From Candidatus Poribacteria bacterium (GTDB taxonomy: Bacteria > Poribacteria > WGA-4E > WGA-3G): a stretch of DNA of 64,000 nt. The notes under the pieces are model-generated. The model saw nothing but the letters and a program-made list of their open reading frames with translations. It was not told where the DNA came from and did no database searches. Numbering within the stretch: position 1 is the stretch's first letter; each line of letters starts with the position of its first letter. Position numbers and translations under genes: made by a program. This document shows positions 5,831-64,000 of the stretch, one piece after another. The stretch is taken from the NCBI GenBank assembly GCA_963665235.2, contig CAXXLX010000002.1, positions 192,001 to 256,000 of the forward strand. Reading direction: 5' to 3'.

Positions 5831-6343
5831 TTAAAAATAGGCGTGTATGCCGGCACTCATGTAAACGCCTGCAAGTTTTTGAGAGTGCGATTCAGCTTTT
5901 TCCGTGCCAAATCCTTGACCGATACTCACGTTCAAACCGAACGGAATGCCGCCAATTGAAAAGACAAGTTCACTGCCAAAAGCGAGCCCCCCTGCAAGCG
6001 TCGTCGTCAGCTGCTCCTTTTCCATCTTATATCGCCAACCCCCCTCTAAGGTGAAATAGAGGCGAGCTATGCTCAACTTACTTTGATGCTCAAATATAGC
6101 GTAAGAAATACCTGCCCCTAACATGTGGTCGCTATCCCGCTCGTTCAGAACGAGCCGTCCCACCGTTTGAAGATAGACCGGGGCTAATCCGTTATAGCGA
6201 AAACTCAACCCACCAAAGGCAGGCGTAGCCCCCTGAAGTCCAATACCGAAATTTTTAGTGAGGTCAGCCTGTTGCGCATGCGTTGAGAGACTGAAGACTG
6301 CCACAAAAAAGATACAAGTTAAGCAAAAAATTAAGTGTTTCAC
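5831..6343 (-). CDS. Secreted protein, possible small outer-membrane beta-barrel
   Basis: Signal peptide, Gly/aromatic alternating strands, C-terminal Phe. Confidence 0.6.
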   Translation of the reverse strand: MKHLIFCLTCIFFVAVFSLSTHAQQADLTKNFGIGLQGATPAFGGLSFRYNGLAPVYLQTVGRLVLNERDSDHMLGAGISYAIFEHQSKLSIARLYFTLEGGWRYKMEKEQLTTTLAGGLAFGSELVFSIGGIPFGLNVSIGQGFGTEKAESHSQKLAGVYMSAGIHAYF

Positions 6344-6394
6344 TGTTTTTCTCCTTCGCTACGGCACACCGTAGCGGATTTTCCACTACTTCGC

Positions 6395-8008: not shown

Positions 8009-8094
8009 TCTCCTTTTACGTGTTTTATAAGTTAACATAGATAAGTAAATGAACAGTGTTAACTTATAAACCAAAAAAATATAGGCGACCTAAC

Positions 8095-8700
8095 CTACGC
8101 CTTCAACCCCTCAATAGTTGTCTGAATTACCGTATCAATCAGTTTGTCTTTTTCAGCCCAAGGGAAATCGGGAAAATCTATCAGGAGCAGCGTGACACCG
8201 TGAACGGCTGCCCACAACACCTGCCCGGTAGTTTCGACATCCATTTGGCGGAATATCTTCTGTTGCATGCATTCAGAGACCGTGGTTCGCAAATAGTCAA
8301 ACACCTTTTCGCCGACGGAGCCCTCTTGCAGTCCTAATCCTTTCTGGAATTGCGGTCGGATAACAAAAGTGAGCTTGTAATCCTGCGGATATTTTAGTCC
8401 GAACTCAATATAGGCGCGTCCGCTTTTTCGTAGGGTCTCGACGGGGTCGCCTTTATCCTCCTTTAGTTGCTCAAGCGTGTTCAACAGATGCAGGAGTGTT
8501 TCCTTGCAAACAGAATCTAACAGGTCTGCCTTATCTTTGAAATAAAGGTAGATTGTTGTCGGTGAGTATTCGATTTTGTCGGCAATCTTTCGCATGGAGA
8601 CGTTCTCATACCCTTCATTGACAAACAATTCTCGTGCTGCTAAAAGAATTTTCTGCCGCAACTCCTCTTTCTGCCTCGCTCTGCGCTCTTTAACACCCAT
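8095..8700 (-). CDS. TetR/AcrR family transcriptional regulator
   Basis: HTH GYENVSMRKIADKIEYSPTTIYLYFKDK; C-terminal W..VHG; start MGVKERR at 8700, since the longer ORF begins inside the promoter. Confidence 0.92.
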   Translation of the reverse strand: MGVKERRARQKEELRQKILLAARELFVNEGYENVSMRKIADKIEYSPTTIYLYFKDKADLLDSVCKETLLHLLNTLEQLKEDKGDPVETLRKSGRAYIEFGLKYPQDYKLTFVIRPQFQKGLGLQEGSVGEKVFDYLRTTVSECMQQKIFRQMDVETTGQVLWAAVHGVTLLLIDFPDFPWAEKDKLIDTVIQTTIEGLKA

Positions 8701-8731
8701 TGCGTCACCTTGATTTACATAGTTATTTATC

Positions 8732-8772
8732 TTAACACTGTTAATTATACTACATATTTTCCTGTTTGTCAA
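8732..8772 (-). promoter_or_regulatory. Consensus promoter plus palindromic operator for tetR
   Basis: TTGACA-17-TATAAT followed by TTAACAGTGTTAA; a near-identical site lies at 8050-8062 before the FG-GAP gene. Confidence 0.75.
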
Positions 8773-9002
8773 GAAAAAATTGCATTCGTAGAATGTTGGC
8801 GATTAGCAATTTTGGCAATTGGCACTTAGCAAGATGTTGTGCTTCTAAGCAGGTTTGTGACGTGCTTCAAAGTTCTCTTCTTCTTGCTATAGGTTTCCAT
8901 AATGCTATAAACACGCGAGCTTGATAATAAATATCCGTTTTCTCTAAACATTTTTGAGGTTCTCCGAAAAAAGCGGAATGAGTGGAGCAGAAACCGCTGC
9001 TT

Positions 9003-9254
9003 CTATAAATATATCGTCCTTGAGGAGCGGGAAACCGTTTGCCCGAATACTGGGGCTAAGATTTGGGCGTTAGCGGTTTTCTATAAATATATCGTCCTTG
9101 ACTGTTTGCCCGAATACTGGGGCTAAGATTTGGGCGTTAGCGGTTTTCTATAAATATATCGTCCTTGAGGAGCGGGAAACCGTTTGCCCGAATACTGGGG
9201 CTAAGATTTGGGCGTTAGCGGTTTTCTATAAATATATCGTCCCTACGGGACTAA
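9003..9254. repeat. Tandem 78/67/78-bp repeat of the CTATAAA.ATATCGTCC..GGG.CTAAG family
   Basis: Unit starts at 9003, 9081, 9148, 9226; the same family occurs at 13681/13760 and 16151-16427. Confidence 0.85.
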
Positions 9255-9303
9255 GACCCGTACATTAACCAAACCGAGGCAGATAACCGCCTGCGTATTC
9301 TGA

Positions 9304-11673
9304 CTATCCTAAGGTGTCCTCCTCCGCTAGCTCATAATAACTGGTGTGGCGGCTGTAGTAACCGTAAGATTTGGCATGCTTCGGGTTTATCATGTTACAA
9401 AGTACGCCAATTCCTTTCTTGGGCAAGCCTTGAGTGAGATGCCGGACACCTGCTAAGACATCAGTCCGCCGGGTTTTCGTGATGTCAAACACATAGACGA
9501 TAGCATCGACGTTAGGTGCCAAAATCATCGGGTCAGCGACAGCTCGGACAGGGGGGGAGTCAATGACGATTACATCATATTCAGATTTCGCCAGTTCCAG
9601 CCACTGTGTCATCATCTCCGAGTTGAGCAGCTGAATCGGGTTTGGCGGTACGGCCCCGCCCGATATGAGCTGCAAATTCGGAATATCGGTCGGTTTGACG
9701 GTTGCGTGCAAAACGTCTTCTGCGTTTTCGGTGTTTATATGGATGAGGGCTTCGCTCAATCCCGGTTTGCGAGCTGCACCGCTTGCTACTACCAAGGCTT
9801 CAGAGGCAGTCTCATCTTCTGTAGGAACATCCTGAATCGGTTGTGCTGTTGCAAAAATTTTGTGTTGCGAAGGTCTCCGCATATCCGCATCTATGAGCAG
9901 CACGTTATCCCCGTTTTGGGCGAGTGCTGCCGCTAGGTTGGCAGAGATAGTGCTTTTTCCCTCTCCGCGGGTTGCACTCGTGACAAGAATAGTTCTCACT
10001 TCGCCGCTGGGGTTAAGGAACGGTAATTTCGCTTGGAGAGCCCGAAATGCCTCGGCGGTTTTTGAACGCGGGGCATCGTGAACGATAAGCGGAAGCCGAT
10101 ACGCACGTCTCTTCTTCATTGATGGAATTACGCCTAAAAAACTGGGGGGCTCCGGTAGCGCGTCCAATTGCTCAACAGCCTCCTCTAATCGTAAATAGGT
10201 GTCTTTAAAGTAATTTTTGGCGACAGCGTACGTAAATCCGAGGAGCGCGCCGAGCATCGCTCCTAGAAGGAGATTTAGCTTTTTCTGCGGTTTAACCGGT
10301 TCTTCAGGGAGTCGGGCTTTATCTAAAAAGCTGACACTTTCTGTAAGGGACTGGGCGGTGACCTCCGATTCCATCATCCTTGTTTTCAGGGTGACCACTT
10401 GTGTGCCGAAAATTTCAACGTCGCGTTTGAGTCGAAATAACTCTATTTGCGTCGCTGACCAGCTGCCTAATTTTTCAAGATTCGCTGCAATTTGAGCGGC
10501 GACCTCCGCTTTCTGCTCCTCAAGCCCAATAATGATTGCTTGCCCCTCATTAATTTTTTCTGTAATGACTTGATGTAAAGGGTTGTAAGCGGAGGTTGTG
10601 CTTTTTAGGTCCGGTTCTTCCTCATCGAGACGGGCCCGTGTCTCCTTAATTTTTTCATCGAGGGCGGTAATTTCAGGATGGGCTGTGTCGCCATATTTAC
10701 CGATAAGTGCTTTCCGCTCAATTTCATACTCATTCAGGTTATCTTTGAGTTTGGAATAGGATGGATTTTTTGTGACCGTTTCTGAAATGAGATTTTCCTC
10801 GATATTCTCCAGCTCTTTTTTATAGACATCAATCTTCAATTTAGCCCCTACCAATTGACTTACCAATTCGTTTTCGCTCAATTGGAGTGCCAAAATGCGT
10901 TGTGCTTGTATACTTCCGTCAGCATTTATGGTAATTTCTGGGTTGCGCTTCTGAAATTGTGCGAGCTTCTCTTCAGCAGTTTTCAAGTTGTTTTCGGTTT
11001 CATTCAACATCTGCTGGGGGGCTTCCTTTTCCCACCATCGCATATTTCGGGCTGTTTCGGTTTCGATAGTATCAATAAACACATTCGCAATTCTGTTAGC
11101 TAACTGCTGGGCGCGTTCGGGGGTCCGTTGAAGCAGTGTAATCGTAATGACATTTCCATCTGGGGATTCTTCAACCTTAAGTTGTTCATCAATAAGGGTT
11201 TTAATGAAAAAGTCTTCCCACTCCTGTGGGGTCAGTTCTCCCTGTTCCGTAGTGTCTGTGAGTTTAACATTCAGTCGATTTGCTAGCCACGGGAGCAGCT
11301 GTCCACGGTGAATAGGTTCCGGTTCCAAAATTCCCTCTGCTCGCAGCTGCTGAACAGCGGGGGTAATAATGGTGTCTCGGGATTGTAGCAGCGCGGCGTA
11401 GACCCCGCCAGATTTGCCGCCGAGGAACCCGGATAGCGGTAGCTGCGATAGGAGCGAAGTTGCTTGTTGGTTATCGAGGAGGCGAAGGGTTGTTTCTGAT
11501 TTGTAAACTGGCGCGGTGAGGTCTGTTACGACAAACGCCGCGAAAACGGTGAACAAAAAAATAAAAAGAACACTCCACTTATTCCGAAAGAGAATCCAAA
11601 AATAGTTTGATAATCGAATTTCTGTAATTTCTTCAAGTTGCTTGTCTGTTGTTTCTGACATAATTAACCTCAT
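9304..11673 (-). CDS. wzc: Polysaccharide co-polymerase/tyrosine autokinase
   Basis: Two TM segments flanking a coiled coil, GEGKST Walker A, LLIDADMRRP, VIVIDSPP, C-terminal Tyr cluster SYGYYSRHTSYYE. Confidence 0.9.
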   Translation of the reverse strand: MRLIMSETTDKQLEEITEIRLSNYFWILFRNKWSVLFIFLFTVFAAFVVTDLTAPVYKSETTLRLLDNQQATSLLSQLPLSGFLGGKSGGVYAALLQSRDTIITPAVQQLRAEGILEPEPIHRGQLLPWLANRLNVKLTDTTEQGELTPQEWEDFFIKTLIDEQLKVEESPDGNVITITLLQRTPERAQQLANRIANVFIDTIETETARNMRWWEKEAPQQMLNETENNLKTAEEKLAQFQKRNPEITINADGSIQAQRILALQLSENELVSQLVGAKLKIDVYKKELENIEENLISETVTKNPSYSKLKDNLNEYEIERKALIGKYGDTAHPEITALDEKIKETRARLDEEEPDLKSTTSAYNPLHQVITEKINEGQAIIIGLEEQKAEVAAQIAANLEKLGSWSATQIELFRLKRDVEIFGTQVVTLKTRMMESEVTAQSLTESVSFLDKARLPEEPVKPQKKLNLLLGAMLGALLGFTYAVAKNYFKDTYLRLEEAVEQLDALPEPPSFLGVIPSMKKRRAYRLPLIVHDAPRSKTAEAFRALQAKLPFLNPSGEVRTILVTSATRGEGKSTISANLAAALAQNGDNVLLIDADMRRPSQHKIFATAQPIQDVPTEDETASEALVVASGAARKPGLSEALIHINTENAEDVLHATVKPTDIPNLQLISGGAVPPNPIQLLNSEMMTQWLELAKSEYDVIVIDSPPVRAVADPMILAPNVDAIVYVFDITKTRRTDVLAGVRHLTQGLPKKGIGVLCNMINPKHAKSYGYYSRHTSYYELAEEDTLG

Positions 11674-11734
11674 GTTCTCGATGAACGCACCAGTGTGTAC
11701 GTAAAAAATGGAAGAAAGAAGAGATGTCTTTCCG

Positions 11735-12958
11735 CTATCTATATCTCAGCCAAACACTCACAACAAGGTTTGTCAACGAGGCAGCGAAAGATAGCACACG
11801 CCAGTCGATACGTGTCCGTTCCAAGATTCGGAGCTGATCATTTGGATTCAGGTAAATCTCGGATTGTACTATGTTGTAGTTAAGCTCCTCTTGGGTCCCA
11901 TCAGCACGTGTAAGGATACATTTTTTAGGGTTGGCTTTCTCTTCGTTCAATCCACCCGCCATTGCGACAGCATCTCTTAAAAGCGTTGGTTCTGTGATGA
12001 CATATTGCCCGGGCCTATCCACGGCACCAACAACGCCTATTTTTGCTTCCGCCAACGGAACATATAAGGTATCCCCTGGTCCCAACTTAGCTTCCGAGTC
12101 TGTTCCTGTCAAATCGACCGGTTTATGTCCAGTGTTAGTGACAATTTCTGCCTTCTTCAAATCGGCGAAGTCTGCTCTGGACCCGCCTGCAAGTTTTAAG
12201 GCGCGCGTTGCGGTAATCTGCTGCGTTGCTAACGGAATCGGGTAGAGGCCAGGGGCGGTTACTGCGCCTATCACACGAATTCGTCTTTGGGCGTAAACAG
12301 ATGGGACGATGACAATATCGTAATCTTTTAGGGGAATATCGCCTTTGCCGGTCTCAAGCAGCTCCAAAAAATTTACCTCTTTGTGCCGTTCTCCGTCACG
12401 CCAGACAGTAATTTTCGTCAGGTCGGCGATTTCATAGTTGATACCCGCGGATGCTAAGGCGTGCATCAGATACACCTGCCCCGCACTAAAAACATGCAAA
12501 TTGCCCCGTGGTCGCAATTCAACTGCGCCGAACACCAAAATGTTCCGCCTGGGTTGCATAAGCGTTACAAAGACACGGACACTCGGCAGTTTTGCGGAGA
12601 AGGCACGTTGCATTTCTGCTTCCAGCTCAGAAACCGTTAAACCGATTGCCTTGATAAGTCCAATTAGCGGATAGGAAATATAACCATCCGGTTGAACCGG
12701 AACAGCCGTTCGCTCTTTGCTATATTCGGGATACCCTTCCACTGTAACGACGATGCTGTCCCCAACCTGCAATTTATAAGTGGATACCCCCGGTACTTCT
12801 CCGCTGCTAATGACAATGTTCTCGGCATCGGCATCTATCTCGGAAACCTCTGTGCTGTTAGCAGCAACGTCCTTGACATCGGCATCCACCGCCGTAAAGT
12901 TCGGCAGTGCCAAAATTAGCAGGATAAGTCCTAAGCGTAAGTATAAAAACGTATTCAT
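11735..12958 (-). CDS. wza: Polysaccharide export protein with SLBB repeats
   Basis: YKLQVGD, VQPDGYISYPLIG, repeated V.GAV..PG.Y SLBB domains; upstream of wzc. Confidence 0.85.
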   Translation of the reverse strand: MNTFLYLRLGLILLILALPNFTAVDADVKDVAANSTEVSEIDADAENIVISSGEVPGVSTYKLQVGDSIVVTVEGYPEYSKERTAVPVQPDGYISYPLIGLIKAIGLTVSELEAEMQRAFSAKLPSVRVFVTLMQPRRNILVFGAVELRPRGNLHVFSAGQVYLMHALASAGINYEIADLTKITVWRDGERHKEVNFLELLETGKGDIPLKDYDIVIVPSVYAQRRIRVIGAVTAPGLYPIPLATQQITATRALKLAGGSRADFADLKKAEIVTNTGHKPVDLTGTDSEAKLGPGDTLYVPLAEAKIGVVGAVDRPGQYVITEPTLLRDAVAMAGGLNEEKANPKKCILTRADGTQEELNYNIVQSEIYLNPNDQLRILERTRIDWRVLSFAASLTNLVVSVWLRYR

Positions 12959-14288
12959 TAAATTTAAATCAACCTTTTTCGGTTGCGCGTCTCGCGCGCG
13001 GTTCTATACGTAAAATTTATCTGTTTGTTACTTTGTTGCTGTTTGGATGCAAATTCTTCAAATTATTTTAGCAAATCTCTATCAAAAATGCAAGTGAAAA
13101 GCATTTGCAGAGGTGTGTAAAGTTTTTGGACAAAACCGGTGGAAATGTTACACTTTTGACACAAAGTGTAACATTTGGTTCTCGGTTCTGAATGTGTCTG
13201 AACGCACGCCACGTCTATGTTTATAGGCGATTTACCCCTATATTTTTCGCAACACAAAAAAAACGCGTTGTGCCATTTTGGCTGCCGGTTTTCGGTTATC
13301 ACTCCTGCCTACTTTTGTGTGCTGTTCTGGTGTAAATGTTACACTTTTGACACAAAGTGTGACATTCGGTTCTCGGTGGTGGATGTTCCTGAACGCCTGC
13401 CCCGTCTATGTTCGTAAGCGGTTTTGACCCACCTTGGACGATTTCAAAAAAATGAAATGTCACACTTTCGCTATCGGTGGCTAATCAGGTGAGTTGCAAA
13501 CCGTGCCGCTTTCCTCCGAAAAATGTTTTGGTTCTCTGTTATGTTAGTTGCGAACTGTTTGATTTTTCTTCATAAAAAATATCGCAGCCGTACAAAAACT
13601 TTACACACCCGTCTGATTGGGTGCGTAAAATTTTTGTACTTAACGCGAGCTTGATAATAAATGTCCGTTTGTGCTAACCTCTATAAAGATATCGTCCTTG
13701 AGGAGCGGGAAACCGTTTGCCCGAATACTGGGACTAAGAAGCGTTGGGAAAACGGTTATCTATAAAGATATCGTCCTTGAGGAGCGGGAAACCGTTTGCC
13801 CGAATACTGGGACTAAAGAAACTTTTTTTCAAACTCACGTTGTACTTAACGTGTTATGTAGGAGCGTGCTGGGCACGCGATACCTTTCTAGATAGGCGGA
13901 CATCTCTTAAACTCCGCGTCTTCCGCGTTCTCCGCGATAATCCGCGATTTGTGGCGTACTCGCCCAAATGCGACGTGCATTCAGACAAAAAAACCCTAAA
14001 ACTATAATCACAAAACTTGGATTGTTACGCATCGGACACTCCGCGAAATCCGTGTTCTCCGTGTCATCTGCGATTCAGACAGCACAAGCGAAATCCACTC
14101 TTCCACTCTTCCTCTTCCACTCTTCCATCCTTCCATCTTTCCACCCTTCCATCTTTCCATCCTTCCACTCTTCCATCCTTCCACTCTTCCACCCTTCCAC
14201 CCTTCCCACTATCATAGTACAAAAACTTTACACACTCCTGTTAAAAATGATTGTTGCTTTAAGATGTGAATTATGCTAATATAATTTT

Positions 14289-15350
14289 GTGAACTTAAAA
14301 GCTGTTTTTGCACAACTTCAAGGTAAACAGGTGATGGTTATCGGTGATATTATCCTGGACGAGTATATTTGGGGAGATGTGAACCGAATTTCGCCTGAAG
14401 CCCCCGTACCCGTGTTTGACATGACCGCGAAGGAGACTGGCTGTGGAGGCGCAGCGAACGTCGCTCAGAATATTGCCAAGTTGGGAGGCAAGGCAGAACT
14501 GGTCGGTGTTATCGGGAAAGACAGGGAGGGCGAAAAGCTGCACCAGATGGTTACCGCTATGGATATAGGTACCACCGGTATCTGTATGGATATCCAGCGT
14601 CCGACGAGTACGAAAACGCGTGTGATTGCTTACGCGGATACTCCGAGTCGTTCGCGGTCGCGCGGGAATTCATCGTTGCCTCCGGGGCATCATCTGCTCC
14701 GTATTGACAGAGAGTCGAAGCAGGAGGCTTCTGCTGTCCTGCGGGAGCGGCTGTTAGCGGCTGTTCTTGCAAAATTACCGGAGAGCGATGCGGTTATTTT
14801 TTCGGACTACGATAAGGGTGTTGTGAGTCCGGCACTTATTGGGGCAGTTGTAGCGCGGGCGCAGCCTGAAGATATACCGATAATCGTAGACCCGAAGCGG
14901 AATAACTTCTGGGACTATGAAGGCGTAACTGCGCTTACGCCAAATCATAAGGAGGCAGGCGCGGCGGTTGGGGAAGAAATCGCGGATGTGTCGCACCTCG
15001 TTGCTGTTGGTGAGAAAATTTTAGCCCGGTTATCCCTCAAAACGTTGTTAATTACGCGTGATGCGGAGGGAATGTCCCTATTTCAGCGTGATGCAGCGGG
15101 GGCATTACAGGTGGAACATCTGCCGCCACACGTTCTCAGAGTGACAGACGTGACAGGGGCGGGGGATACCGTTGCTGCTGTCTTCACGCTTGCGCTTGCA
15201 GCTCACGTTGATTTCCGCAGTGCGGCCCTGTTGTCAAACCTTGCGGCGGGTATTGTCGTTGGAAAAATGGGATGCGCCGCTGTTACGCCTGAAGAGCTGC
15301 TGCATGCAATTGAAACGTTGAAAAGCAGCGATATGGAGACCGCACTATGA
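14289..15350 (+). CDS. rfaE1: D-glycero-beta-D-manno-heptose-7-phosphate kinase (PfkB family)
   Basis: GDIILDEY.WGDVNRISPEAPVPV, GGAANVA, SDYDKG, DVTGAGDT. Confidence 0.92.
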   Translation: MNLKAVFAQLQGKQVMVIGDIILDEYIWGDVNRISPEAPVPVFDMTAKETGCGGAANVAQNIAKLGGKAELVGVIGKDREGEKLHQMVTAMDIGTTGICMDIQRPTSTKTRVIAYADTPSRSRSRGNSSLPPGHHLLRIDRESKQEASAVLRERLLAAVLAKLPESDAVIFSDYDKGVVSPALIGAVVARAQPEDIPIIVDPKRNNFWDYEGVTALTPNHKEAGAAVGEEIADVSHLVAVGEKILARLSLKTLLITRDAEGMSLFQRDAAGALQVEHLPPHVLRVTDVTGAGDTVAAVFTLALAAHVDFRSAALLSNLAAGIVVGKMGCAAVTPEELLHAIETLKSSDMETAL

Positions 15351-15907
15351 GAACGGTTTTTCTTGACCGGGATGGCGTTATCAATGTGAGTCTACCCAAT
15401 AAAGGCTATGTCCGGAGCTGGGCAGACTTTACGTTTATCCGGAATGCCAAGGAAGCAATCCGCACCTTGACCGAAAGCGGTTTTCGGATTATTGTGATAA
15501 CCAATCAATCCGGCATCGGGAGAGGGTTTTTCACCGAGCCTCAGCTAATAGACATTCATCAGCAGATGTCTGCCGAAATCACAACGGCAGGGGGTCAGCT
15601 TCATGCTATCTATTACTGTCCACACACCCCTGAAGTCGGATGCCCCTGTAGAAAACCGAAGCCGGGTATGCTAATACGCGCAGCACAGGAACATGATATA
15701 GACCTGTCAAAAGCATACTTCATTGGCGACTTTATTACTGATATTGAGGCGGGGAGAAGTGCTGGCGTATCGCCTCTATTGGTTTTAACAGGACACGGCC
15801 GGAATACGTACCGGCGTTATATATCTAACACACAACCCCCTAAAACGCGGACACCCGACAAAATTTTCCAGGACCTTTACGCAGCAGCACACTGGTTAAC
15901 GCAATAG
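15347..15907 (+). CDS. gmhB: Heptose 1,7-bisphosphate phosphatase
   Basis: FLDRDGVIN, TNQSGIGRG, CPH...C.CRKPKPGM, GD..TD; overlaps the rfaE1 stop. Confidence 0.92.
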   Translation: MRTVFLDRDGVINVSLPNKGYVRSWADFTFIRNAKEAIRTLTESGFRIIVITNQSGIGRGFFTEPQLIDIHQQMSAEITTAGGQLHAIYYCPHTPEVGCPCRKPKPGMLIRAAQEHDIDLSKAYFIGDFITDIEAGRSAGVSPLLVLTGHGRNTYRRYISNTQPPKTRTPDKIFQDLYAAAHWLTQ

Positions 15908-16150
15908 CTAGCGGGTTGTTTTCGGGACGTTATTATTCGAAAACAACGTTTTCGTGAACTGCTGTCAATTAATTAATTCTAAACTTTGGACAATTTTAGG
16001 GGGCGTAACTTTATTGTCAAAGGGATAGGTGGAAGAATGGAAGGGTGGAAGGGTGGAAGGGTGGAAGGGTGGAGTTTGCTTTTTTTGTCTGAATCACGGA
16101 AGGCACAGAGGCCGCAGAGGACGCGGAAAGAAGAGGGGTTTGGCTAAAAT

Positions 16151-54786: not shown

Positions 54787-55200
54787 TAGTCGCGTGCACA
54801 GCACGCTCCTACAGAAGAATTCGGAATAATAGATAATGAGTCTCAATAGTCGCGTGCACAGCACGCTCCTACAGAAGAATTCGGAATAATAGATAATGAG
54901 TCTCAATAGTCGCGTGCACAGCACGCTCCTACAGAAGAATTCGGAACAGATAATGAGTCTCAATAGTCGCGTGCACAGCACGCTCCTACAGAAGAATTCG
55001 GAACAGATAATGAGTCTCAATAGTCGCGTGCACAGCACGCTCCTACAGAAGAATTCGGAATAATAGATAATGAGTCTCAATAGTCGCGTGCACAGCACGC
55101 TCCTACAGAAGAATTCGGAATAATAGATAATGAGTCTCAATAGTCGCGTGCACAGCACGCTCCTACAGAAGAATTCGGAATAATAGATAATGAGTCTCAA
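54787..55200. repeat. Seven tandem 60/57-bp units (REP hairpin plus TTCGGAA..AGATAATGAGTCTCAA)
   Basis: Starts at 54787, 54847, 54907, 54964, 55021, 55081, 55141; an extra GATAATGAGTCTCAATATC lies at ~55218. Confidence 0.95.
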
Positions 55201-55355
55201 TATCATATTTTATAATGGATAATGAGTCTCAATATCAATTATGAAAAAGTTGCAACATAAATTGGCATTTATTCGTCTATATATACAAGGGGAAATATTA
55301 TTTTCTATCTATGCTAGATTTTTACAAATTATTTTTGCTACAAAGGAGAAACGAA

Positions 55356-56120
55356 ATGCAGGGGGCACGTCCTTTAGTTAATTCGGAGATACAACAGGTT
55401 GCGGAATGTTTTGAGGGCATATTTAGTGTTCGCAATCGTGGTTTGTTTATGCTAGGCGTTAGTACGGGTGGACGGATATCGGAGTTGCTATCGCTTAAAA
55501 TCGGTGATGTGTATCAAAATAGCAAACCGGTGTCGGACCTATTATTTGACCGTTCCATTGTTAAAGGTGGTGAAGTGTCACGAGTTGTGCCGGTGAATTC
55601 GGATGGTAGGGAAGCGGTTGAGGCCCTTATAATGTGGCACGGTAAACATTATGATAGTATTGATGCTGCTCATCCGCTGTTTCCATCTCGGAATGGCAGA
55701 AAAGGTTTGAAACCGATGAATCGTCAAACTGCGCATGATGTGTTAAAACGGGCTTATGAGAAGGCGGGTTTGAACGGTAAGCTAGCGACGCATTCGCTGC
55801 GTAAATCGTTTGCGCAACGTCTTTATGAGCAGACGAGCGACATCTATATGGTGCAAGAGATGTTAGGGCATCGTAGTGTTTCGACGACGCAACGGTATCT
55901 GGGTGTGAACTACACGACGGCGCGTGAGGCATGTGAGGCGATGTCGGTTTTCGTCGAACATGACATAAGTATGAAAACGTCACGTTCGCTCGACGAGGCT
56001 TCTGATGAAGCTCTCCTCCTCGCACTGGTGACGCGGGGTTACGATGTTACGAAGATTTTGAAACCGGAGGCGGATACACGCGGTGAAGTTATACCGGTGG
56101 ATACAGCGGTATCGGCTTAA
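55356..56120 (+). CDS. Tyrosine recombinase, catalytic domain only with C-terminal extension
   Basis: TGGRISELL, KGG, HSLRKSFA, LGHRS...TQRY; ATG 55356 after AAGGAG. Confidence 0.92.
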   Translation: MQGARPLVNSEIQQVAECFEGIFSVRNRGLFMLGVSTGGRISELLSLKIGDVYQNSKPVSDLLFDRSIVKGGEVSRVVPVNSDGREAVEALIMWHGKHYDSIDAAHPLFPSRNGRKGLKPMNRQTAHDVLKRAYEKAGLNGKLATHSLRKSFAQRLYEQTSDIYMVQEMLGHRSVSTTQRYLGVNYTTAREACEAMSVFVEHDISMKTSRSLDEASDEALLLALVTRGYDVTKILKPEADTRGEVIPVDTAVSA

Positions 56121-56294: not shown

Positions 56295-57065
56295 CTAGTT
56301 AATCATACCCTCTTGCGGACTTGAGGCGGTTGCGTAGAGTTTACGCGGGATACGTCCGGCTAAAAACGCTGCCCGTCCCGCTTCAACGGCTTTTTTCATC
56401 GCTTCTGCCATTAGCACAGGACGATGTGCTTTTGCTACTGCTGTGTTGAGCAGCACTCCATCACATCCTAACTCCATGGCGATTGCTGCATCAGAGGCGG
56501 TGCCGACACCTGCATCTACGATAAGCGGCACCTGGACTAAAGCACGGATAATCTGAATGTTATACGGGTTGCGTATTCCCATCCCTGAACCGATTGGGGC
56601 ACCTAACGGCATGACAGCAGCGCAGCCGATGTCTTCTAATTTCTTACAGGTAATCGGGTCGTCGTTGCAATAGGGCAACACGGTGAATCCATCTTTGATG
56701 AGTGTATCCGCTGCGCTGAGCAGCTGCTCTACATCGGGAAATAGCGTCTGCTCATCTCCGATGACCTCTAGTTTGATAAGCGATGTCTCTAAAGCCTCAC
56801 GTGCAAGGTGTGCTGTGAGAATGGCATCCTTCGCGGTGAAACAGCCTGCGGTATTCGGCAGGATTGTCAATCCACGTTCACGTAGTAGGGCAAAGAGGTT
56901 TTCACCGGATGTGTCGGTGAATTTGACACGCCGCATTGATACGGTGGCGATTTCTGCCCCGCTTGCCGCGATGGACTCCATCATGACATTGAAATTGGGA
57001 TACCCCGCTGTTCCGATAAGTAGTCTTGAGCTATATGTTGCATCTGCAATTTTGAGTTCTGGCAT
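56295..57065 (-). CDS. thiG: Thiazole synthase
   Basis: [42 protein letters not shown]. Confidence 0.97.
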
Positions 57066-57194
57066 GTTTTATCTTAGGGTTGATGTTTATTTGTGTCTTT
57101 TTAATGGAACGTTTAGCGTTTTCTACAGTAACGATAATTAGACCACATTTTTTGAGTAATGTCAAATGTTTTTTGATATCCCTGCCCGAACGAA

Positions 57195-57701
57195 TCATAT
57201 CTCCATCATAGCAAGTATAACGAGTTTCATTGGCGGATAAAAAAAAGCATTCACTATGTGTAGAGCCCATAACTGGCTTGGAAAATGGTCGTTAGGCTTA
57301 AACAGAGCGGCTAATTTTACGCAAATTAATGTAATAACAGCTGAACCTATAACTCCTTCTATTGGATGAAAAAAGAGCTTTCCATCATCTTCATCAGAGA
57401 ACATGAATTCCCATCCAAATGCTATTAATAATGTAAAAGGTAAAGAGATGAAAAATCCCTTAACGAAACCTTTCATCAGTTTCTTTTTATAGGCATAACG
57501 CCGTTGTTTGCGTTCTTCTGGTGTTTCCTGTGGTTGTGAAAGTTCTTCTTCCACTACAGTCTCTGTCCGATTTTTGTCCAGACTGTCGAGCATCAAACCT
57601 AAACCGACTCCAATTAATGCCTCATCAAATCCATCTCCACCATTATCGTTGAACCCATCGTCACTATTATCGTTGAATTCATCGTCGCCATTATAGCTCA
57701 T
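57195..57701 (-). CDS. Hypothetical membrane protein with Asp/Asn-rich N-terminus
   Basis: ORF after GGGAG; repeated (F)ND..DG; 2-3 hydrophobic segments. Confidence 0.6.
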   Translation of the reverse strand: MSYNGDDEFNDNSDDGFNDNGGDGFDEALIGVGLGLMLDSLDKNRTETVVEEELSQPQETPEERKQRRYAYKKKLMKGFVKGFFISLPFTLLIAFGWEFMFSDEDDGKLFFHPIEGVIGSAVITLICVKLAALFKPNDHFPSQLWALHIVNAFFYPPMKLVILAMMEI

Positions 57702-57889
57702 AAAAAACTCCCTTTTTAATTGGCTATTGGCAAGAGGAAGTGTTGGAAAAATTTACACACCCCTAGCATCAGAGGCTAAAATAGCGGGAACTTTTAAACA
57801 CCTCACTATTTGCCAAATAGATCAGGAAATACCACATTTCCAGATAAACCGGGATTAGCGATTCCGGCTGTTGTCCATTTTGTCCGAAG

Positions 57890-58390
57890 CTAGCGAGTTT
57901 TCGCCTTATAGGCATCGGCGTAGATTTCAACATACTCAGGTGATTTTCCGAGGAGCCGCTCAGGCGGCGGATGGGACTGAGAACGATAAATCCCACTGAG
58001 TGGCACTAAGACACCTGCTGCAAAACCAATGCAACCTCCCACGACTGCTCCTTGACTGATGTCGTCAAATGGCATCAATCCTGATGGGGCTGAGGGATCT
58101 CTAGGCGCGATAAAGTTCCCGATAACGCATCCAGCAAGACCACCAATTGCTCCTCCAATACATAAAGTACCCACATCAGCACCAAGCCGCAAACGTTCAT
58201 TGATATAGCGATTCACGTCTTGTCCAGCAGCAAATTTAGCCTCAAATCTCATAGCACTTGTATCTTGTGCCGCAACAGTTTTGGCTGCAACCCGCCCGGA
58301 ATTCTGCTGAGCGTAGGTGGCAAATAGCAGGCTGAAAGTTAACACTGCTATACAAAAAACCAAAACAGGAAATGTCATATCTCTTTTCAT
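57890..58390 (-). CDS. Hypothetical exported protein with glycine-zipper-like segments
   Basis: MKRDMT start after AAGGAG; signal peptide; GGAIGGLAGC and GAVVGGCIG. Confidence 0.6.
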   Translation of the reverse strand: MKRDMTFPVLVFCIAVLTFSLLFATYAQQNSGRVAAKTVAAQDTSAMRFEAKFAAGQDVNRYINERLRLGADVGTLCIGGAIGGLAGCVIGNFIAPRDPSAPSGLMPFDDISQGAVVGGCIGFAAGVLVPLSGIYRSQSHPPPERLLGKSPEYVEIYADAYKAKTR

Positions 58391-58414
58391 CGAATTTCTC
58401 CTTCTTATGTTTGG

Positions 58415-58442
58415 CAATTCCGTTCAAACGGGAAAGCACATG
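58415..58442 (-). repeat. Solitary degenerate CRISPR repeat
   Basis: CAATTCCGTTCAAACGGGAAAGCACATG matches 27 of 28 positions of the array repeat. Confidence 0.85.
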
Positions 58443-58889
58443 GATATGTAATCAAATCCATACTTCGCTTTTCGCCTCGAGAAAAAGATCTTCAGAATGC
58501 CCTACAACGCATTTTAAAAGATGTCCCTGTGTATGAGGTCAAGGATAAATTTCTAATGGGTTATTGACAATTAGCAATTAGCATTTGGCAAGAGGGGTGT
58601 TGGAACAATATAACCGTTCCTATCCTTCCAAGCGAAAGTATCGCGAACTTGGACAGCACTGCTCTATTTTTCATTTTTTAAAGTATACTCGATTTCACAA
58701 AAAAAATCAACCTATCGTGAACTTTTGAGTGTGTTGTCTGAATGCACGTCGCATTTGGGCGAGTACGCCGCAAATCGCTGATTTTCGCGGAGGACGCGGA
58801 TTACGCGGATTTTAAGAGGTTTGGGCATCACGGTTTTGTGATTAAGGGTGTTGCGTCTTTTTTGTCTGAAGACATCAAGGACTTTGAAA

Positions 58890-60044
58890 TCATTTTGGCG
58901 GAGGAAGCTTTCCTATTTTGACTAAGCCTGTAAAAAAGAATTCAAAGTTTTTGAAAAGCTTCTTAATTGCTGCAATAGCTGTATTGCTGCTCCGCGCGTC
59001 GGGACGCATCCCACAGTGGGCAAGGTCATTTCGAGTCCCATTACAAGCACTCCAAAGTTTGTCCAAAGGGAGTTTGGATTTTGCAGCAAATCGCGTGTTT
59101 AGCGCATGCTCAGCCTCCGCTCGCTGCGGAAGATCCAATAAATTGGGGGATGTTCGATGTATTTGAAGAAGCTCCCAAGACACTAACCATTCGCGAATCA
59201 AGGTTATAGCATGGAGATAGTGTAGGTTATCAATATACCACTTGATTTGCACATACTGCCCTGTGAGGCTTTCTCGTGGACTTAATGCCGGATCCCCCAC
59301 ACTGATTCCTGCATAGGTGTCCTTTACTTGATCTACCAAAATGTGAAATGGGGCCTCGAGTCTGTCCAAAGTTTCTGGACGTTCTAGCCTTCTAATAAGT
59401 CTTGGCACTGCTTCTTGTGCTTCAAGGGTTCGATTTGTAAGAAGTGCATCCGACAAAGTCGTGAGCTCCCGACGAATAGTGCTTACACCCCCCAACCCGG
59501 CGAGTTGCCGCGCATCTCCCGAGTGCTGGAAGACATTAACAGCATTCGTCCAATTCAACAGATCTACAAAAGGCGTTAAGTCGAAAATCGGGGTCTCATT
59601 TTTAGAGGTATCCCGTGCTTCATACGCACCATAAATAATATGCTTAAGTTCGACATCTTTAACTTGGCGCAAGTAAGCCGAAACGATGAAAACGAGTAAG
59701 GGGATAGAACGGAACGCATGCGTAATATCAAGGATAATTTCGTCCTTGAGTTCGACAGTCTTTGCACATACATCAAAAATTTCCCACAGTTCCTCTGGTG
59801 AGTTACCATTTTGAATCTCCTGTGTACAAAAGTTGCTGATGTCTTCTTCGAGACCCTCTATAACTTTGGCCTTAGCTGATTTCACTTTTGGGGTAACAAA
59901 CGCTATGATTTTATCTGGTTCATAAAGTTCCGCTACGGCTTTAGGAAATAGATCTGTCTTACAAGTCTTACAAGGATCATCATGCTTGACATAGGTCGTT
60001 TCATCATAGTTTCCAAGACCTATAAAAGTAAGTGCCTTTAACAT
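58890..60044 (-). CDS. csx1: CRISPR-associated CARF-HEPN ribonuclease (Csx1/TM1812-like)
   Basis: LTFIG.G.Y....Y, LDITHAFRSIP (DxTHG-type), YGAYE...PIFDLTPF..L..W, HEPN RNDLAH. Confidence 0.88.
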   Translation of the reverse strand: MLKALTFIGLGNYDETTYVKHDDPCKTCKTDLFPKAVAELYEPDKIIAFVTPKVKSAKAKVIEGLEEDISNFCTQEIQNGNSPEELWEIFDVCAKTVELKDEIILDITHAFRSIPLLVFIVSAYLRQVKDVELKHIIYGAYEARDTSKNETPIFDLTPFVDLLNWTNAVNVFQHSGDARQLAGLGGVSTIRRELTTLSDALLTNRTLEAQEAVPRLIRRLERPETLDRLEAPFHILVDQVKDTYAGISVGDPALSPRESLTGQYVQIKWYIDNLHYLHAITLIREWLVSWELLQIHRTSPNLLDLPQRAEAEHALNTRFAAKSKLPLDKLWSACNGTRNDLAHCGMRPDARSSNTAIAAIKKLFKNFEFFFTGLVKIGKLPPPK

Positions 60045-60233
60045 TCTGTGTCTCCTTCAGTTAAGGGTTGTGATTCACATCGATAAAACTCAAAATCGTC
60101 TATTGGTATTGGCAATTAGCATTTAGCATTTTTGGCAATTGGCAAGAAGTCTCTGACGCGGGTCAAAAACCTGCTTAGAAGCACAACCTCTTGCTATTCG
60201 CCTCTTTGCTATTTGCCATTCGCCAATTAGCAA

Positions 60234-60596
60234 TTAGTCATTAGCCCCTTTGAGCCTTTTCAGTAAAGCATTTAGCATCTTCTTTAGACTGATGATTGTA
60301 GCGTCCAAATCGGCATATTGTGCCGCATCTAGGTATTCGAGGTCGTGTGCAAGCAGGATAAGATAGTCCGTTTCACTTGTAGAACCCATTGCTATCTGAA
60401 GAAAACGCTTGAATTCAGCTTCGCTGCCTCTTCCACAACCTTCGGCGATGTTTGTTGGTATCGATGCGCTTGCACGGCGAAGTTGATGCGTCAAGCCATA
60501 TATTTCTGTTCGAGGAAATTGAGTTGTTAGCGCGTAGATTCTTAAAGTTAGCTCATGTGCTTTTTCCCAAACTTGTAGTTGCCTAAAATCCCGCAT
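60234..60596 (-). CDS. Four-helix-bundle protein (23S rRNA IVP / Avd-like fold family)
   Basis: F..L.VW.KAH.L...IY..T..FP..E.YGL..QLRRA..SIP.NIAEG.GR....F.RFL.IA.GS..E. Confidence 0.9.
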   Translation of the reverse strand: MRDFRQLQVWEKAHELTLRIYALTTQFPRTEIYGLTHQLRRASASIPTNIAEGCGRGSEAEFKRFLQIAMGSTSETDYLILLAHDLEYLDAAQYADLDATIISLKKMLNALLKRLKGAND

Positions 60597-60661
60597 ATTT
60601 CTTACCTATTTGATTATTGCAAATCTATTGGTAATTGACTATTTGAATCAGTTGTTTTCTT

Positions 60662-62218
60662 GCTAATTGCCATTCGCCATTTGCCATTCGCCATTTCGCA
60701 TTCCCTTCAAACGGGAAAGCACATGTGTCATTGGCTATTAGCTGTTAGCAATTAGCAGTTGGCAAGAGGTTTTGTTGTAACAATCTACCCGTTCCTATCA
60801 TTCCAAGCCAAAGTATCGCGAACTTGGACAGCACACGACTGTTTGCCAGGAGCTTCCTCTTGCTATTCGCCATTTGCCATTTGCCATTTCCCATTCCGTT
60901 CAAACGGGAAAGGACATGTGGTATTGGCAGTTGGCAGTTAGCAATTGGCTATTGGCAAGAGGGGGTGTTGTCACAATCTAACCGTTGTTAGCATTCCAAC
61001 TATAATCGAACCGATACGGAATGTTCGGGACGCAATGTCACAATCTAACCGTTGTTAGCATTCCAAGCCAAAGTAACGCGAACTTTTACAACACACGCCT
61101 GTTTGCTAGGCGCGTTCTCTTGCTATTTGCTAATCGCCATTTGCCATTCGCCATTTCGCATTCCGTTCAAACGGGAAAGGACATGTGGTATTGGCAGTTG
61201 GCAGTTTAGCAATTGGCAAGTTGGCAAGAGGACTCTGACACCTGTCAAAAACTTGCTTAGAAACACAACATCTTGCTATTCACATCTTGGCTATTTCCTA
61301 AAGTGGCTGTTGGAAACTGTTCGCTATTCGCAACCGTGGGCAAGAGGTCTCTGACGCACGTCAAAAACCTGCTTAGAAACACAACATCTTGCTAATCGCC
61401 ATTTGCCATTCGCCATTCGCCATTTCGCATTCCCTTCAAACGGGAAAGCACATGTGTCATTGGCTATTGGCTGTTGGCTATTGGCTGTTGGCAAGAAGGC
61501 TCTGGCGCAGGTCAAAAAATCGCTTAGCATCACAACATCTTGTTGTTGTTCGCCTCTTTGCTCTTTGCTAAAGTGACTGTTGGGAACCGTGGGCAAGAGG
61601 GCTCTGGCGCAGGTCAAAAACCTGCTTAGCATCACAACATCTTGCTAATCGCCATTTGCTAATCGCCATTCGCCATTTCGCATTCCCTTCAAACGGGAAA
61701 GCACATGTGTCATTGGCTATTGGCTGTTGGCTATTGGCTGTTGGCAAGAAGGCTCTGGCGCAGGTCAAAAAATCGCTTAGCATCACAACATCTTGTTGTT
61801 GTTCGCCTCTTTGCTCTTTGCTAAAGTGACTGTTGGGAACCGTGGGCAAGAGGGCTCTGGCGCAGGTCAAAAACCTGCTTAGCATCACAACATCTTGCTA
61901 ATCGCCATTTGCTAATCGCCATTCGCCATTTCGCATTCCCTTCAAACGGGAAAGCACATGTGTCATTGGCTATTGGCTGTTGGCTATTGGCTGTTGGCAA
62001 GAAGGCTCTGGCGCAGGTCAAAAAATCGCTTAGCATCACAACATCTTGTTGTTGTTCGCCTCTTTGCTCTTTGCTAAAGTGACTGTTGGGAACCGTGGGC
62101 AAGAGGGCTCTGGCGCAGGTCAAAAACCTGCTTAGCATCACAACATCTTGCTAATCGCCATTTGCTAATCGCCATTCGCCATTTCGCATTCCCTTCAAAC
62201 GGGAAAGCACATGTGCAC
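60662..62218. repeat. Long-period array of CRISPR-repeat cores embedded in heptamer elements
   Basis: Core ATTCC(C/G)TTCAAACGGGAAAG(C/G)ACATGTG at 60700, 60893, 61160, 61429, 61682, 61935, 62188; the last three intervals are exactly 253 bp. Confidence 0.9.
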
Positions 62219-64000
62219 GTATCATGGCCGGGGGCGAAAGAGGGGGGGAGAAATTTGTTTCAATTCCCTTCAAACGGGAAAGCACATGTGCACGCACTAC
62301 TCCTGGCACTGGTGGTTGCTGCTTCCTGTGTTTCAATTCCCTTCAAACGGGAAAGCACATGTGCACGAAAATGATTACTACTATTTTTTTCACGCTGTTA
62401 AGTTTCAATTCCCTTCAAACGGGAAAGCACATGTGCACGAAGTCATCATCCAGAACGATGTAATCGTCAGTGGTGAGTTTCAATTCCCTTCAAACGGGAA
62501 AGCACATGTGCACCTCAACTTGATTACAATGGTCGCACTGCTGGCAACGTTTCAATTCCCTTCAAACGGGAAAGCACATGTGCACCCTTCGTGAATCCGG
62601 ACTGAAGTTGATCAAGATGCTGGTTTCAATTCCCTTCAAACGGGAAAGCACATGTGCACGAATTACAGATACGGAAATTGCCAAGCGGATTTACAAGTTT
62701 CAATTCCCTTCAAACGGGAAAGCACATGTGCACGAAAGGATAAAGTAATGTTGAATTTAAAAGGAATAACAGTTTCAATTCCCTTCAAACGGGAAAGCAC
62801 ATGTGCACTTGAGATGGCAGAAAAAGGCCTAAAGGATGACATGAGTTTCAATTCCCTTCAAACGGGAAAGCACATGTGCACAAAGCTCAAAAGCAGCTTG
62901 AAAAAGAGCTTGAGGCCCTGGTTTCAATTCCCTTCAAACGGGAAAGCACATGTGCACGCTTGAAAAAGAGCTTGAGGCCCTGATGGCTGAAGAAGGTTTC
63001 AATTCCCTTCAAACGGGAAAGCACATGTGCACGAAGCAACCGTTCTGATCTCAAGAACCAGTACAAAGGTTTCAATTCCCTTCAAACGGGAAAGCACATG
63101 TGCACCGGGATGTGGATACATTTTACGATGTGTTATTAAATAGTGTTTCAATTCCCTTCAAACGGGAAAGCACATGTGCACTCGAGAAAAACGTCGTAAA
63201 GCTGCTTTAGAGGCCGAGTTTCAATTCCCTTCAAACGGGAAAGCACATGTGCACATTTCATAAACCAGGCATGGACCTTCACAGGCACAGCAGTTTCAAT
63301 TCCCTTCAAACGGGAAAGCACATGTGCACTGTTGAAAAAAGCTTTCACAATCGCAACATTAACTGGTTTCAATTCCCTTCAAACGGGAAAGCACATGTGC
63401 ACGAAAAATTGGGTTGTTTGTGTATTTTTGTTTTTTGGGCACGTTTCAATTCCCTTCAAACGGGAAAGCACATGTGCACAAATAGATAAAACAAGGAGGC
63501 GAATTCTGCTTGTTATAGTTTCAATTCCCTTCAAACGGGAAAGCACATGTGCACGAAATTTAAAAATTTGGCTACTTTGGTATTGATTTGTTTCAATTCC
63601 CTTCAAACGGGAAAGCACATGTGCACCGCTTTTGTTTTCGTTTTTGTTTTCGCTTTCGTCAGTTTCAATTCCCTTCAAACGGGAAAGCACATGTGCACTT
63701 GTTTAAGTAGTTTAGAGGTTGGCAAGTCTCAACGGTTTCAATTCCCTTCAAACGGGAAAGCACATGTGCACAACGATGGTTCCCTTGCAAGGAATTATAA
63801 CCGCGAGTTTCAATTCCCTTCAAACGGGAAAGCACATGTGCACAAATCGCGGCACGATGGAGAACAGGTACAAAGATTTAAGTTTCAATTCCCTTCAAAC
63901 GGGAAAGCACATGTGCACAGCTGCTAGATGCCACTGAGGAATTGGCGGAGGCGGGTTTCAATTCCCTTCAAACGGGAAAGCACATGTGCACACTTTCCAA
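62188..64000 (-). CRISPR. CRISPR array, 37-bp repeat, 24 full repeats plus 1 truncated, 24 complete spacers (35-40 bp); continues beyond window
   Basis: Repeat GTTTCAATTCCCTTCAAACGGGAAAGCACATGTGCAC; its reverse complement ends ATTGAAAC with a TTCCC/GGGAA hairpin, implying minus-strand transcription and a leader to the right. Confidence 0.98.

Follow-up and report, generated by a model that had tools for sequence, protein, structure and literature searches.

At the right end of the 64,000-nt window analysed here (G000:C2:192001-256000, where G000 is the 5.3-Mb, four-contig genome of a Candidatus Poribacteria bacterium), a CRISPR array runs, on its trailer side, into an irregular series of repeat copies separated by heptamer-armed elements. 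We propose that this series is probably a mosaic of decayed repeats and palindromic elements, similar to repetitive extragenic palindromic sequences and bacterial interspersed mosaic elements (REP/BIME), that was built mainly by recombination at the 3' end of the array and whose RNAs could be cut by Cas6 without serving as guides. The structure is true, statistically clear and partly conserved, and it sits at the trailer end of the array, as an earlier sequence-only reading of the window stated. That reading regarded it as the best candidate for an undescribed system; evidence for such a system was not found, and the mosaic is not a demonstrated new defence system.

A search with the 20-nt repeat core TTCAAACGGGAAAGSACATG revealed 32 matches in the window, against 0 expected from 100 shuffles. 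These comprise 24 canonical repeats, a terminal variant (62194), six extra copies with matches starting at 61941, 61688, 61435, 61166, 60899 and 60706, and one outlying copy (58423). The six extra 28-bp cores had been reported before, and their spacings of 193, 267, 269, 253, 253 and 253 bp were reproduced exactly; the seventh extra copy (58417), absent from the sequence-only reading, lies 2283 bp further left. The inverted heptamer arms that had been described around the cores are also present, with (GCCATTY)n on the left abutting the six copies and the terminal repeat, and (ATTGGCT/ATTAGCA)n on the right abutting the six copies. About 100 nt to the right of the outlying repeat, a right arm (~58562-58596) is followed by part of a filler sequence, cargo B. 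Every copy retains the repeat hairpin, either as TTCCC...GGGAA or, at 58417, 60893 and 61160, as a shifted CCG...CGG. As had been noted, the tag of the CRISPR RNA (crRNA) is altered, the minus strand reading GGGAATGCGAAAT (GGGAATGGGAAAT at 60893) in place of GGGAATTGAAAC; in all eight copies from 58417 to 62188 the tag is ATGCGAAA, ATGGGAAA or TGCCAAAC-like and not ATTGAAAC.

The ~250-bp-period part therefore differs from a CRISPR array, as its intervals measure 193-269 bp, consist of dispersed repeats and include two identical ones, and none of its repeats provides the crRNA handle. It also differs from CreA and crRNA-like RNA (crlRNA) mini-arrays, since the pseudo-spacers of 165-240 nt match dozens of dispersed elements rather than one promoter, a comparison that included no dedicated search for complementarity to cas promoters. 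Scanning positions 57000-64000 against Rfam with E values up to 1 gave zero matches. Outside this trailer, armed cores occur at only two further G000 loci, three in all. As the armed cores are restricted to array-related loci in G000, we conclude that the cores derive from the CRISPR repeat and not vice versa. The paralogous locus C1:1565317-1565851 contains two core modules, 96% (over 243 nt) and 88% like the trailer modules; a sequence 83% like leader positions 205-292 is joined to them, and the neighbourhood is free of cas genes. Beside these modules we observed about eight tandem ~33-nt copies (…CTGGAAGTTTATGCTACGAAGAAGTGCACAA…; L002 10950-11250, G000:C1:~1565950-1566250). The other locus, at C1:~4289250, has one module beside a solitary repeat; it was rejected as a cas locus, because cas genes are absent among its neighbours, which are a methyltransferase, fragments of insertion sequences (IS) and of an ATPase, and an EF-Tu-like GTPase. 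A four-repeat mini-array (C1:459741-460249) and a single repeat (C1:656947-657171) carry a related repeat (…CACTGGGGGCAC) and 87-92% copies of the first 200-256 nt of the main leader, and neither has a heptamer module.

The array itself consists of 45 repeats and 44 spacers of 34-43 nt between window position 62182 and C2:~257490, with a repeat-to-repeat period of 72-77 bp in its regular part. The 37-nt repeat reads GTTTCAATTCCCTTCAAACGGGAAAGCACATGTGCAC on the plus strand and GTGCACATGTGCTTTCCCGTTTGAAGGGAATTGAAAC on the minus strand; since the reverse complement of GTTTCAATTCCCTTCAAACGGGAAAGCACATGTGCAC ends in ATTGAAAC, the minus strand is the one on which the array is read. To the right of the array, beyond C2:~257490, come an A+T-rich leader and the cas genes; the genes are all on the minus strand, namely cas1, reverse transcriptase (RT), SWIM protein, cas6, csx19, a Csx7-type repeat-associated mysterious protein (RAMP), further RAMPs and a Cas10 palm-domain protein. 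Profile scores, with cut-offs in brackets, are 63.2 (35) bits for Csx19, 122.8 (108) for Csx7, 28.9 (27) for Cas10 palm2 and 64.5 (25) for Cas6, in addition to 314 bits for Cas1 and 122.6 bits for RVT_1. The RT gene adjoins cas1, and its best NCBIfam model is a group II intron RT/maturase. The neighbouring system is thus a type III-D CRISPR-Cas locus with an RT. Comparison of the 44 spacers with the rest of the genome found no self-targeting, with nothing beyond chance matches of 16-20 nt. Two neighbouring spacers contain an identical 25-nt stretch (62896-62920 and 62958-62982), as overlapping samples of one target.

The sequences between the cores belong to elements dispersed through the genome. 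At the threshold used, G000 contains 170 heptamer tracts, and arm-type tracts number 74 and 70 on the two strands. The usual dispersed element is composed of an arm, GCAAGAGG, a middle of 45-80 nt, CCTCTTGC and a short arm. One such middle, cargo A (GTCAAAAACCTGCTTAG), yields 53 BLAST hits in G000, ~45 of them outside the locus. The sequence-only reading had placed this element at ~951, 8797, 20020, 38966 and 60102; with up to 3 mismatches, GTCAAAAACCTGCTTAG was found at 8845, 39012 and 60162 and also inside the array of ~250-bp units, and the sites ~951 and ~20020 have related elements with a different middle. Its further statement that the intervals are mostly this element holds within the 253-bp units and not after cores 60700 and 60893, where cargo B is the filler instead. 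Relatives of cargo B lie at ~61033-61126, with a partial copy at 58598-58659. Its 5 hits in G000 all adjoin cores, with a further related copy, the sixth, at C1:~4289360; its middle part is confined in G000 to the neighbourhood of repeat cores. We considered cargo B as a conserved trailer RNA and rejected it, as the middle part is unmatched in 111 family genomes, in which the arm and the first ~30 nt match. The GCCATTY arm is also peculiar to cores, 11 of the 12 genome hits of GCCATTYGCCATT lying just upstream of one.

In their many dispersed intergenic copies (the 170 tracts and ~45 copies of cargo A) and their foldable imperfect palindrome, the elements resemble REP/BIME or miniature inverted-repeat transposable elements (MITEs). 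When folded, modules of arm, core and arm form long stems in which 4-bp helices alternate with 3-nt internal loops and the CRISPR hairpin is the cap. The fold z-scores of two modules are -2.45 (1 of 200 shuffles as good) and -4.45 (0 of 200), a mini-array of the sister genus gives -2.59, and the whole 253-nt unit gives -1.87. A target-site duplication, typical of MITEs, was not recognised in the four element copies read, and no repeat adjoins any dispersed copy that was inspected in the window. An enzyme of the REP-associated tyrosine transposase (RAYT)/IS200 type was tried as mobiliser and rejected: the genome has 13 Y1_Tnp matches, and 0 of the best 10 have a heptamer tract within 600 nt.

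The part nearest to the array is made of tandem units, for which Tandem Repeats Finder gave a period of 253 bp, 3.5 copies and 98% matches (61332-62215). Unit 2 (61577-61829) and unit 3 (61830-62082) show 0 differences in 253 positions, and unit 1 (61324-61576) shows 10 in 253. With no difference between units 2 and 3 and 10 differences in unit 1, the 253-bp part is, as read from these letters, a recent tandem duplication; the count of identical units depends on the assembly, as short-read contigs match pieces and cannot count units.

No terminator-like site was found on the minus strand between 58400 and 62300. Together with the co-orientation of the array and the downstream four-helix-bundle and csx1-like genes, this makes read-through from the array plausible. 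Contigs from an RNA library of a related strain (~94-98% alike) match 58412-58655, 60212-60605, 60676-60769, 61079-61136 and 61342-61396; RNA libraries can contain DNA, contigs give neither strand nor ends, and uncovered stretches such as the csx1-like gene are not evidence. Self-matching guides, suggested earlier as a function besides decoys and regulators, are unlikely, because every unit has lost the AUUGAAAC tag.

A search of the relatives showed that the arrangement is not private to G000, as arrays in the sister genus (g6) and on metagenome contigs end alike. The repeat family was matched in 39 of 61 genomes of the family. In g6 the trailer-most repeat is often abutted by heptamers and reads ...GCCATT + CCNCA + ATTCCCTTCAAAC..., with the last four tag positions changed; past it follow a heptamer hairpin of 74-120 nt and then another repeat. 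This module is found at the trailer-most repeat in G014, G018, G009, G074, G105, G120, G132 and G030, at one of three arrays in G022 and at two of five sites in G016; in G009 it occurs twice, at an array and at a solitary leader-adjacent repeat. Several of these cases were found via the junction pattern itself and form a biased sample, from which one G036 hit that looks coding was left out; in a sample chosen without the pattern (G016, G030 and G034) the tract is present at 3 of 7 sites. The module thus recurs in the sister genus in about half of the arrays examined, which bears on the conserved position expected of CreA-type units. On metagenome contigs found by the junction pattern, it closes arrays of >20 repeats in 6 of 6, and a metagenome scan for the junction of G000 itself (CCATTTCNCATTCCS...) gave 0 contigs. 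It is absent from the examined arrays of two other genera, g2 (three in G001 and two in G010) and g3 (one in G033). Further degenerate cores between arms occur in G074 (three), in G018 (two) and on contig L083 (two). The relatives' heptamers differ (CCGACAG, CTGACAA, GTTATCA); common to them and G000 are the GCCAT end and a CCTCTT motif ahead of the arm. The dispersed element of the sister genus, composed of heptamer arm, AAGAGG, hairpin, CTCTT and an arm with CTCACTGCGAGGCAAAC, is of the same type as that of G000, and its right end is the end that abuts their trailer repeats.

The relatives also bear on how the modules spread. In G132 and G120 the module directly adjoins the leader, which fits a fixed trailer with new spacers added between module and leader. 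Identical hairpin modules are joined to arrays that differ in the other repeat half (the 3' half), and this shared hairpin on differing repeats points to recombinational exchange within the conserved core. Spacer blocks are tandemly duplicated inside relatives' arrays, with a five-unit duplication in L014, and such duplications show that unequal recombination is active in these arrays. In G022, a 1.7-kb insertion with a transposase-like open reading frame and a separate 392-bp insertion were seen near an array trailer (L013, G022:C2:~1154000-1155700).

Based on these observations, we infer a sequence of events for the mosaic. The locus would be the old, trailer-distal end of the type III-D RT-associated array, with repeats whose hairpin stayed intact and whose 8-nt crRNA tag was ruined, and with the slots between cores filled by lineage-wide heptamer-armed palindromic intergenic elements comparable to REP/BIME or MITEs. 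First, one heptamer element may have come to abut the terminal repeat. The resulting trailer module would then have been inherited, and recombination within the conserved core of the repeat would have swapped it between arrays. In G000, unequal recombination involving repeats and heptamer tracts may have raised its copy number, with the 193-, 267- and 269-bp units as the presumed older products and the 253-bp units as the recent ones. Finally, nested cargo A copies and a ~2-kb block with the csx1-like and four-helix-bundle genes would have been added. Both genes sit between module halves, namely a right arm with the start of cargo B (58562-58659) and TTCTTGCTA with a left arm and core (60649-60727), which suggests that the block sits inside a former module. 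Read-through RNA of the minus strand would form long interrupted stems capped by the CRISPR hairpin, at which Cas6 could cut. The products would begin with AUGCGAAA instead of AUUGAAAC and so should not load as guides, and non-loading would avoid self-targeting of the ~45 or more matching genomic elements. In a transcription-dependent type III system, guides made from a sequence with dozens of genomic copies would target the cell itself, and selection would therefore be expected to leave every unit tag-less. For Cas12a arrays, mutated native terminal repeats were shown to prevent extraneous crRNA from trailer DNA (Liao et al. 2019, PMC6610086), and a preprint judges type III mini-arrays near arrays to be degraded, non-functional repeats (Shmakov et al. 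2023, PMC10120712). The mosaic would then be either neutral or a generic structured 3' end of the array transcript, and not a separate defence system.

Several points weigh against this account. The element takes the exact place of a spacer: an almost complete repeat borders it on either side and remnants of a spacer are lacking, which random insertion into a decaying array would not achieve alone. The junction ...GCCATT + CCNCA + ATTCCC is conserved over arrays with different hairpin loops, which could reflect selection or a site-specific mechanism. In some degenerate cores two-sided changes preserve the hairpin, as TTTCT...AGAAA in G018 and CCG...CGG in G000 and G022, and these paired changes hint at a constraint on it. 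The two G000 module loci without cas genes fit mobility as well as array relics. The module is missing from about half of the sister-genus arrays and from g2 (5 sites) and g3 (1 site), and is thus not a required array part. In addition, the transcription and RNA cutting steps are predictions from the sequence.

Alternatively, the trailer module may be functional, a reading that we regard as possible although improbable. The heptamer hairpin and the tag-less repeat would be selected as a structured 3' end (terminator, insulator or exonuclease block) or as a sink for Cas6, and the multiplied version would strengthen the effect ahead of the co-oriented four-helix-bundle and csx1-like genes. The architecture has been kept over two genera while the heptamer sequence turned over, which would fit this reading together with the strong folds, the lack of an ordinary terminator on the minus strand (58400-62300), the co-orientation of the downstream genes with the array, and the compensatory-looking hairpin changes in some degenerate cores. 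However, the module is absent from 4 of the 7 unselected sister-genus sites, from the examined g2 and g3 arrays and from the two other small arrays of G000. The same elements are scattered genome-wide, the stems in G000 have no following U-run, and the two identical units point to a recent neutral duplication.

Repeat-directed capture is another, unlikely alternative, with which the exact occupation of the spacer slot between nearly whole repeats would agree. Here Cas1/Cas2, with the RT, would integrate the element as an oversized spacer, or the element's own mobility would use the repeat as an attachment site, and the module of core plus arms could then move to new places. The RT gene beside cas1, the core modules at two loci without cas genes, and the resemblance of the element end (ATTACA or ATTTACA after the arm) to the repeat start GTTTCA are consistent with this. 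On the other hand, spacers are added at the leader, whereas the elements are found at the trailer end. The repeats on either side of an element often belong to different subtypes and are not copies of one another, and leader-like fragments lie near both loci that lack cas genes, as would be expected of array relics. No adjoining repeat was seen at the dispersed copies inspected within the window, and the ten Y1-transposase genes examined are all more than 600 nt from a heptamer tract. The sequence-only reading had offered a related idea, that the heptamer element has captured and amplified a CRISPR repeat. Its latter parts stand, as the cores are repeat-derived, embedded in a heptamer-armed element and amplified (in tandem 253-bp units and at a second locus); capture itself keeps the low probability just given. 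A combined scheme is likewise an unlikely proposal: heptamer elements would use the repeat as a landing site or enter as an oversized spacer, giving a portable trailer module swapped between arrays, and read-through would yield Cas6-cut, unloaded RNAs.

It is very improbable that the 253-bp copies, or the whole irregular array, arose from mis-assembled repeats. The identity of units 2 and 3 would be expected of such an artefact, and short-read contigs do not span the units; however, contigs of two independent studies match pieces without difference (61177-61439, 60739-60889, 61079-61206, 61177-61358 and 61500-61655), the last spanning the border of units 1 and 2. In addition, the older units differ mutually in filler and core, and the paralogous locus and the relatives have the same design. 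The public runs were four, all as contigs, and so give no transcript ends, strand or unit number. A related strain has a different local join, from 61281 to 60212, with sides of 63 and 57 nt, in line with recombination at this locus. A joint of 58659 to 60649 in one run (side 31 nt) may stem from the paralogous locus and was not used.

The four-helix-bundle gene was analysed as a further possible component. Residues 5-110 of its product match PF05635 over the full profile (positions 1-106 of 106) with 135.9 bits (cut-off 33.8), and TIGR02436 gives 131.9 bits (24). Heptamer tracts flank the gene as had been described, at 60213-60245 and 60667-60699. The homologues in relatives are 66-72% identical and have a heptamer tract within ~110 nt at 6 of 11 loci, a closeness expected for ~2% of genes (from 170 tracts per 5.3 Mb, assuming a similar density in relatives), and a CRISPR core lies within 1.5 kb at 0 of the 11. 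The gene is therefore to be grouped with the heptamer elements; its position next to this array seems incidental, and the relatives do not support a link to CRISPR repeats. PF05635 was rejected as a multi-copy cargo in G000, which has one copy only. We observed that PF05635 homologues in relatives (L022-L031) are often pseudogenised, with in-frame stops in 6 of 17 matches at E ~1e-39 or better; a heptamer tract is common at one of their ends, as though the heptamer elements had carried them. The fold shared with Avd, the accessory protein of diversity-generating retroelements (DGRs), had also been pointed out; the Avd model NF033474 gives 23.7 bits against a cut-off of 80, and the gene encodes a general TIGR02436/PF05635 protein. 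A DGR-like retroelement, with this protein as Avd, the locus RT and the repeated units as template, is hardly credible and already contradicted by these tests: the common fold family, with its weak Avd-model hit, and the presence of an RT at the locus would agree with it, whereas the Avd score is far below the cut-off, the RT is best matched by a group II intron RT/maturase and lies beside cas1 ~8 kb off across the array, the repeated units are non-coding tandem copies with no template/variable pair in a target gene, and the relatives' homologues are not near CRISPR or RT.

Positions of the features are collected in Table 1. Other repeats and genes were observed around the locus. Window positions 58662-58792 contain GCATTTGGGCGAGTACGCCGCAAATCGC and CGCGGATT-type short repeats. 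Contig depths there add up to 5,000-16,000 in three runs of DNA type, which makes this stretch a very abundant repeat in the sampled communities; similar CGCGGATT runs lie near relatives' CRISPR trailers (L014, L016, L083). Purine-rich short repeats of the GGAAG/GGATGGAAG type occur near leaders (G000:C2:~257900-258200, L052, L014), in G000 at leader positions ~409-459 and at ~20 other genome places. Seven tandem copies of a 60-bp unit (97% matches) lie at window 54787-55202, just upstream of a phage-integrase-family gene (55311-56120). After the type III genes, OLD-like TOPRIM/DUF4435 and AAA_15/AAA_21 ATPase genes (L001 18558-19996, G000:C2:~274560-275996) form a second defence pair adjacent to the CRISPR locus.

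Table 1. Features of the array trailer and its surroundings, in window positions
Feature	Position	Strand	Remarks
Canonical CRISPR array	62257..64000	-	24 of 44 regular 37-nt repeats inside the window (62269-63967 by core match)
Trailer-terminal repeat variant	62182..62218	-	hairpin intact; tag ATTGAAAC changed to ATGCGAAA; heptamer arm directly abutting
3.5 tandem 253-bp units	61324..62215	-	unit: core, right arm, cargo A', linker, cargo A, left arm
Repeat core, 28 nt, altered tag, between heptamer arms	61935..61962	-	
Repeat core, altered tag, between heptamer arms	61682..61709	-	
Repeat core, altered tag, between heptamer arms	61429..61456	-	arms and core pair into a single long stem with interruptions (z -2.45)
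Repeat core, variant CCG...CGG hairpin (ATTCCGTTCAAACGGGAAAGGACATGTG), between arms	61160..61187	-	
Repeat core, same CCG...CGG variant hairpin	60893..60920	-	tag ATGGGAAAT
Cargo B filler	60758..60866	.	bounded by GGCAAGAGG ... CCTCTTGC
Repeat core	60700..60727	-	left arm 60660-60699, right arm 60728-60766; fold z -4.45
Four-helix-bundle gene (PF05635 / TIGR02436), 120 aa	60234..60596	-	sole copy in genome
Complete dispersed element	60102..60222	.	heptamer arm, GCAAGAAG, cargo A (GTCAAAAACCTGCTTAG...), CCTCTTGC, arm
csx1-like gene, 384 aa	58890..60044	-	TIGR02221 (cas_TM1812 family) 123.7 bits, cut-off 76; DxTHG motif
Outlying degenerate repeat (GTTTGGCAATTCCGTTCAAACGGGAAAGCACATGGA)	58409..58444	-	without directly adjacent arm

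The analysis documents a family of heptamer-armed palindromic elements, tightly linked to PF05635 genes, in an uncultured sponge-associated phylum. If the mosaic reflects decay and the spread of repeats, it is a caution that CRISPR finders and repeat annotators will mis-call such trailers, and that 'solitary repeats' in these genomes need not be regulatory. If the slot fit reflects a mechanism, it would bear on how arrays end and avoid guides from their own trailers, and on the uptake of long structured nucleic acids by adaptation enzymes. Should the landing-site or oversized-spacer reading be true, it would reveal a hitherto undescribed way in which a non-autonomous repeat element and the architecture of CRISPR arrays interact.

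Among known systems, the REP/BIME of enterobacteria and REP doublets forming hairpins (REPINs) are short dispersed intergenic palindromes that form tandem clusters with conserved linkers and can structure the 3' ends of transcripts. The mosaic resembles them in its dispersed palindromes, in clusters alternating with linkers and in potential structured 3' ends. It differs in its stems, which consist of heptamers in tandem, in having a CRISPR repeat among the alternating palindromes, and in the lack of a linked RAYT-type gene. In Nostoc, a ~25-nt hairpin-forming unit is reportedly found inside tandem heptameric repeats of a repeat-rich genome (described by Elhai et al. in 2008). Compared by description only, that case is from a different phylum, whereas the nested unit here is the host's CRISPR repeat at array ends. 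PF05635 bears the family name '23S rRNA-intervening sequence protein', and such genes are carried by intervening-sequence elements. Similar to these, the four-helix-bundle reading frame here has inverted repeats on both sides that could pair into a long stem; unlike them, the gene lies outside an rRNA gene, the stem is made of heptamer tracts, and the link to a CRISPR trailer is found only in G000. Insertions of IS or MITEs also bring mobile DNA into arrays, as in a relative with a 1.7-kb transposase-bearing insert. However, those split the flanking spacer and occur anywhere, whereas each heptamer element takes up a complete slot, and none was seen away from the trailer end. In the literature searched, neither the heptamer-armed palindromic element family nor this arrangement is described, although the supplementary lists of PMC10120712 may hold such mini-arrays. 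The nearest published statement concerns type III mini-arrays close to arrays, which that preprint describes as having the look of degraded repeats. Similar to the degenerate terminal repeats and mini-arrays of PMC10120712 and PMC6610086, the copies described here are repeat-like, lie distal to the array and are mutated in their distal part. In contrast to those, this trailer has seven further copies, separated by intervals of 165-240 nt that consist of dispersed palindromes and are not spacer-like, and the design recurs in another genus.

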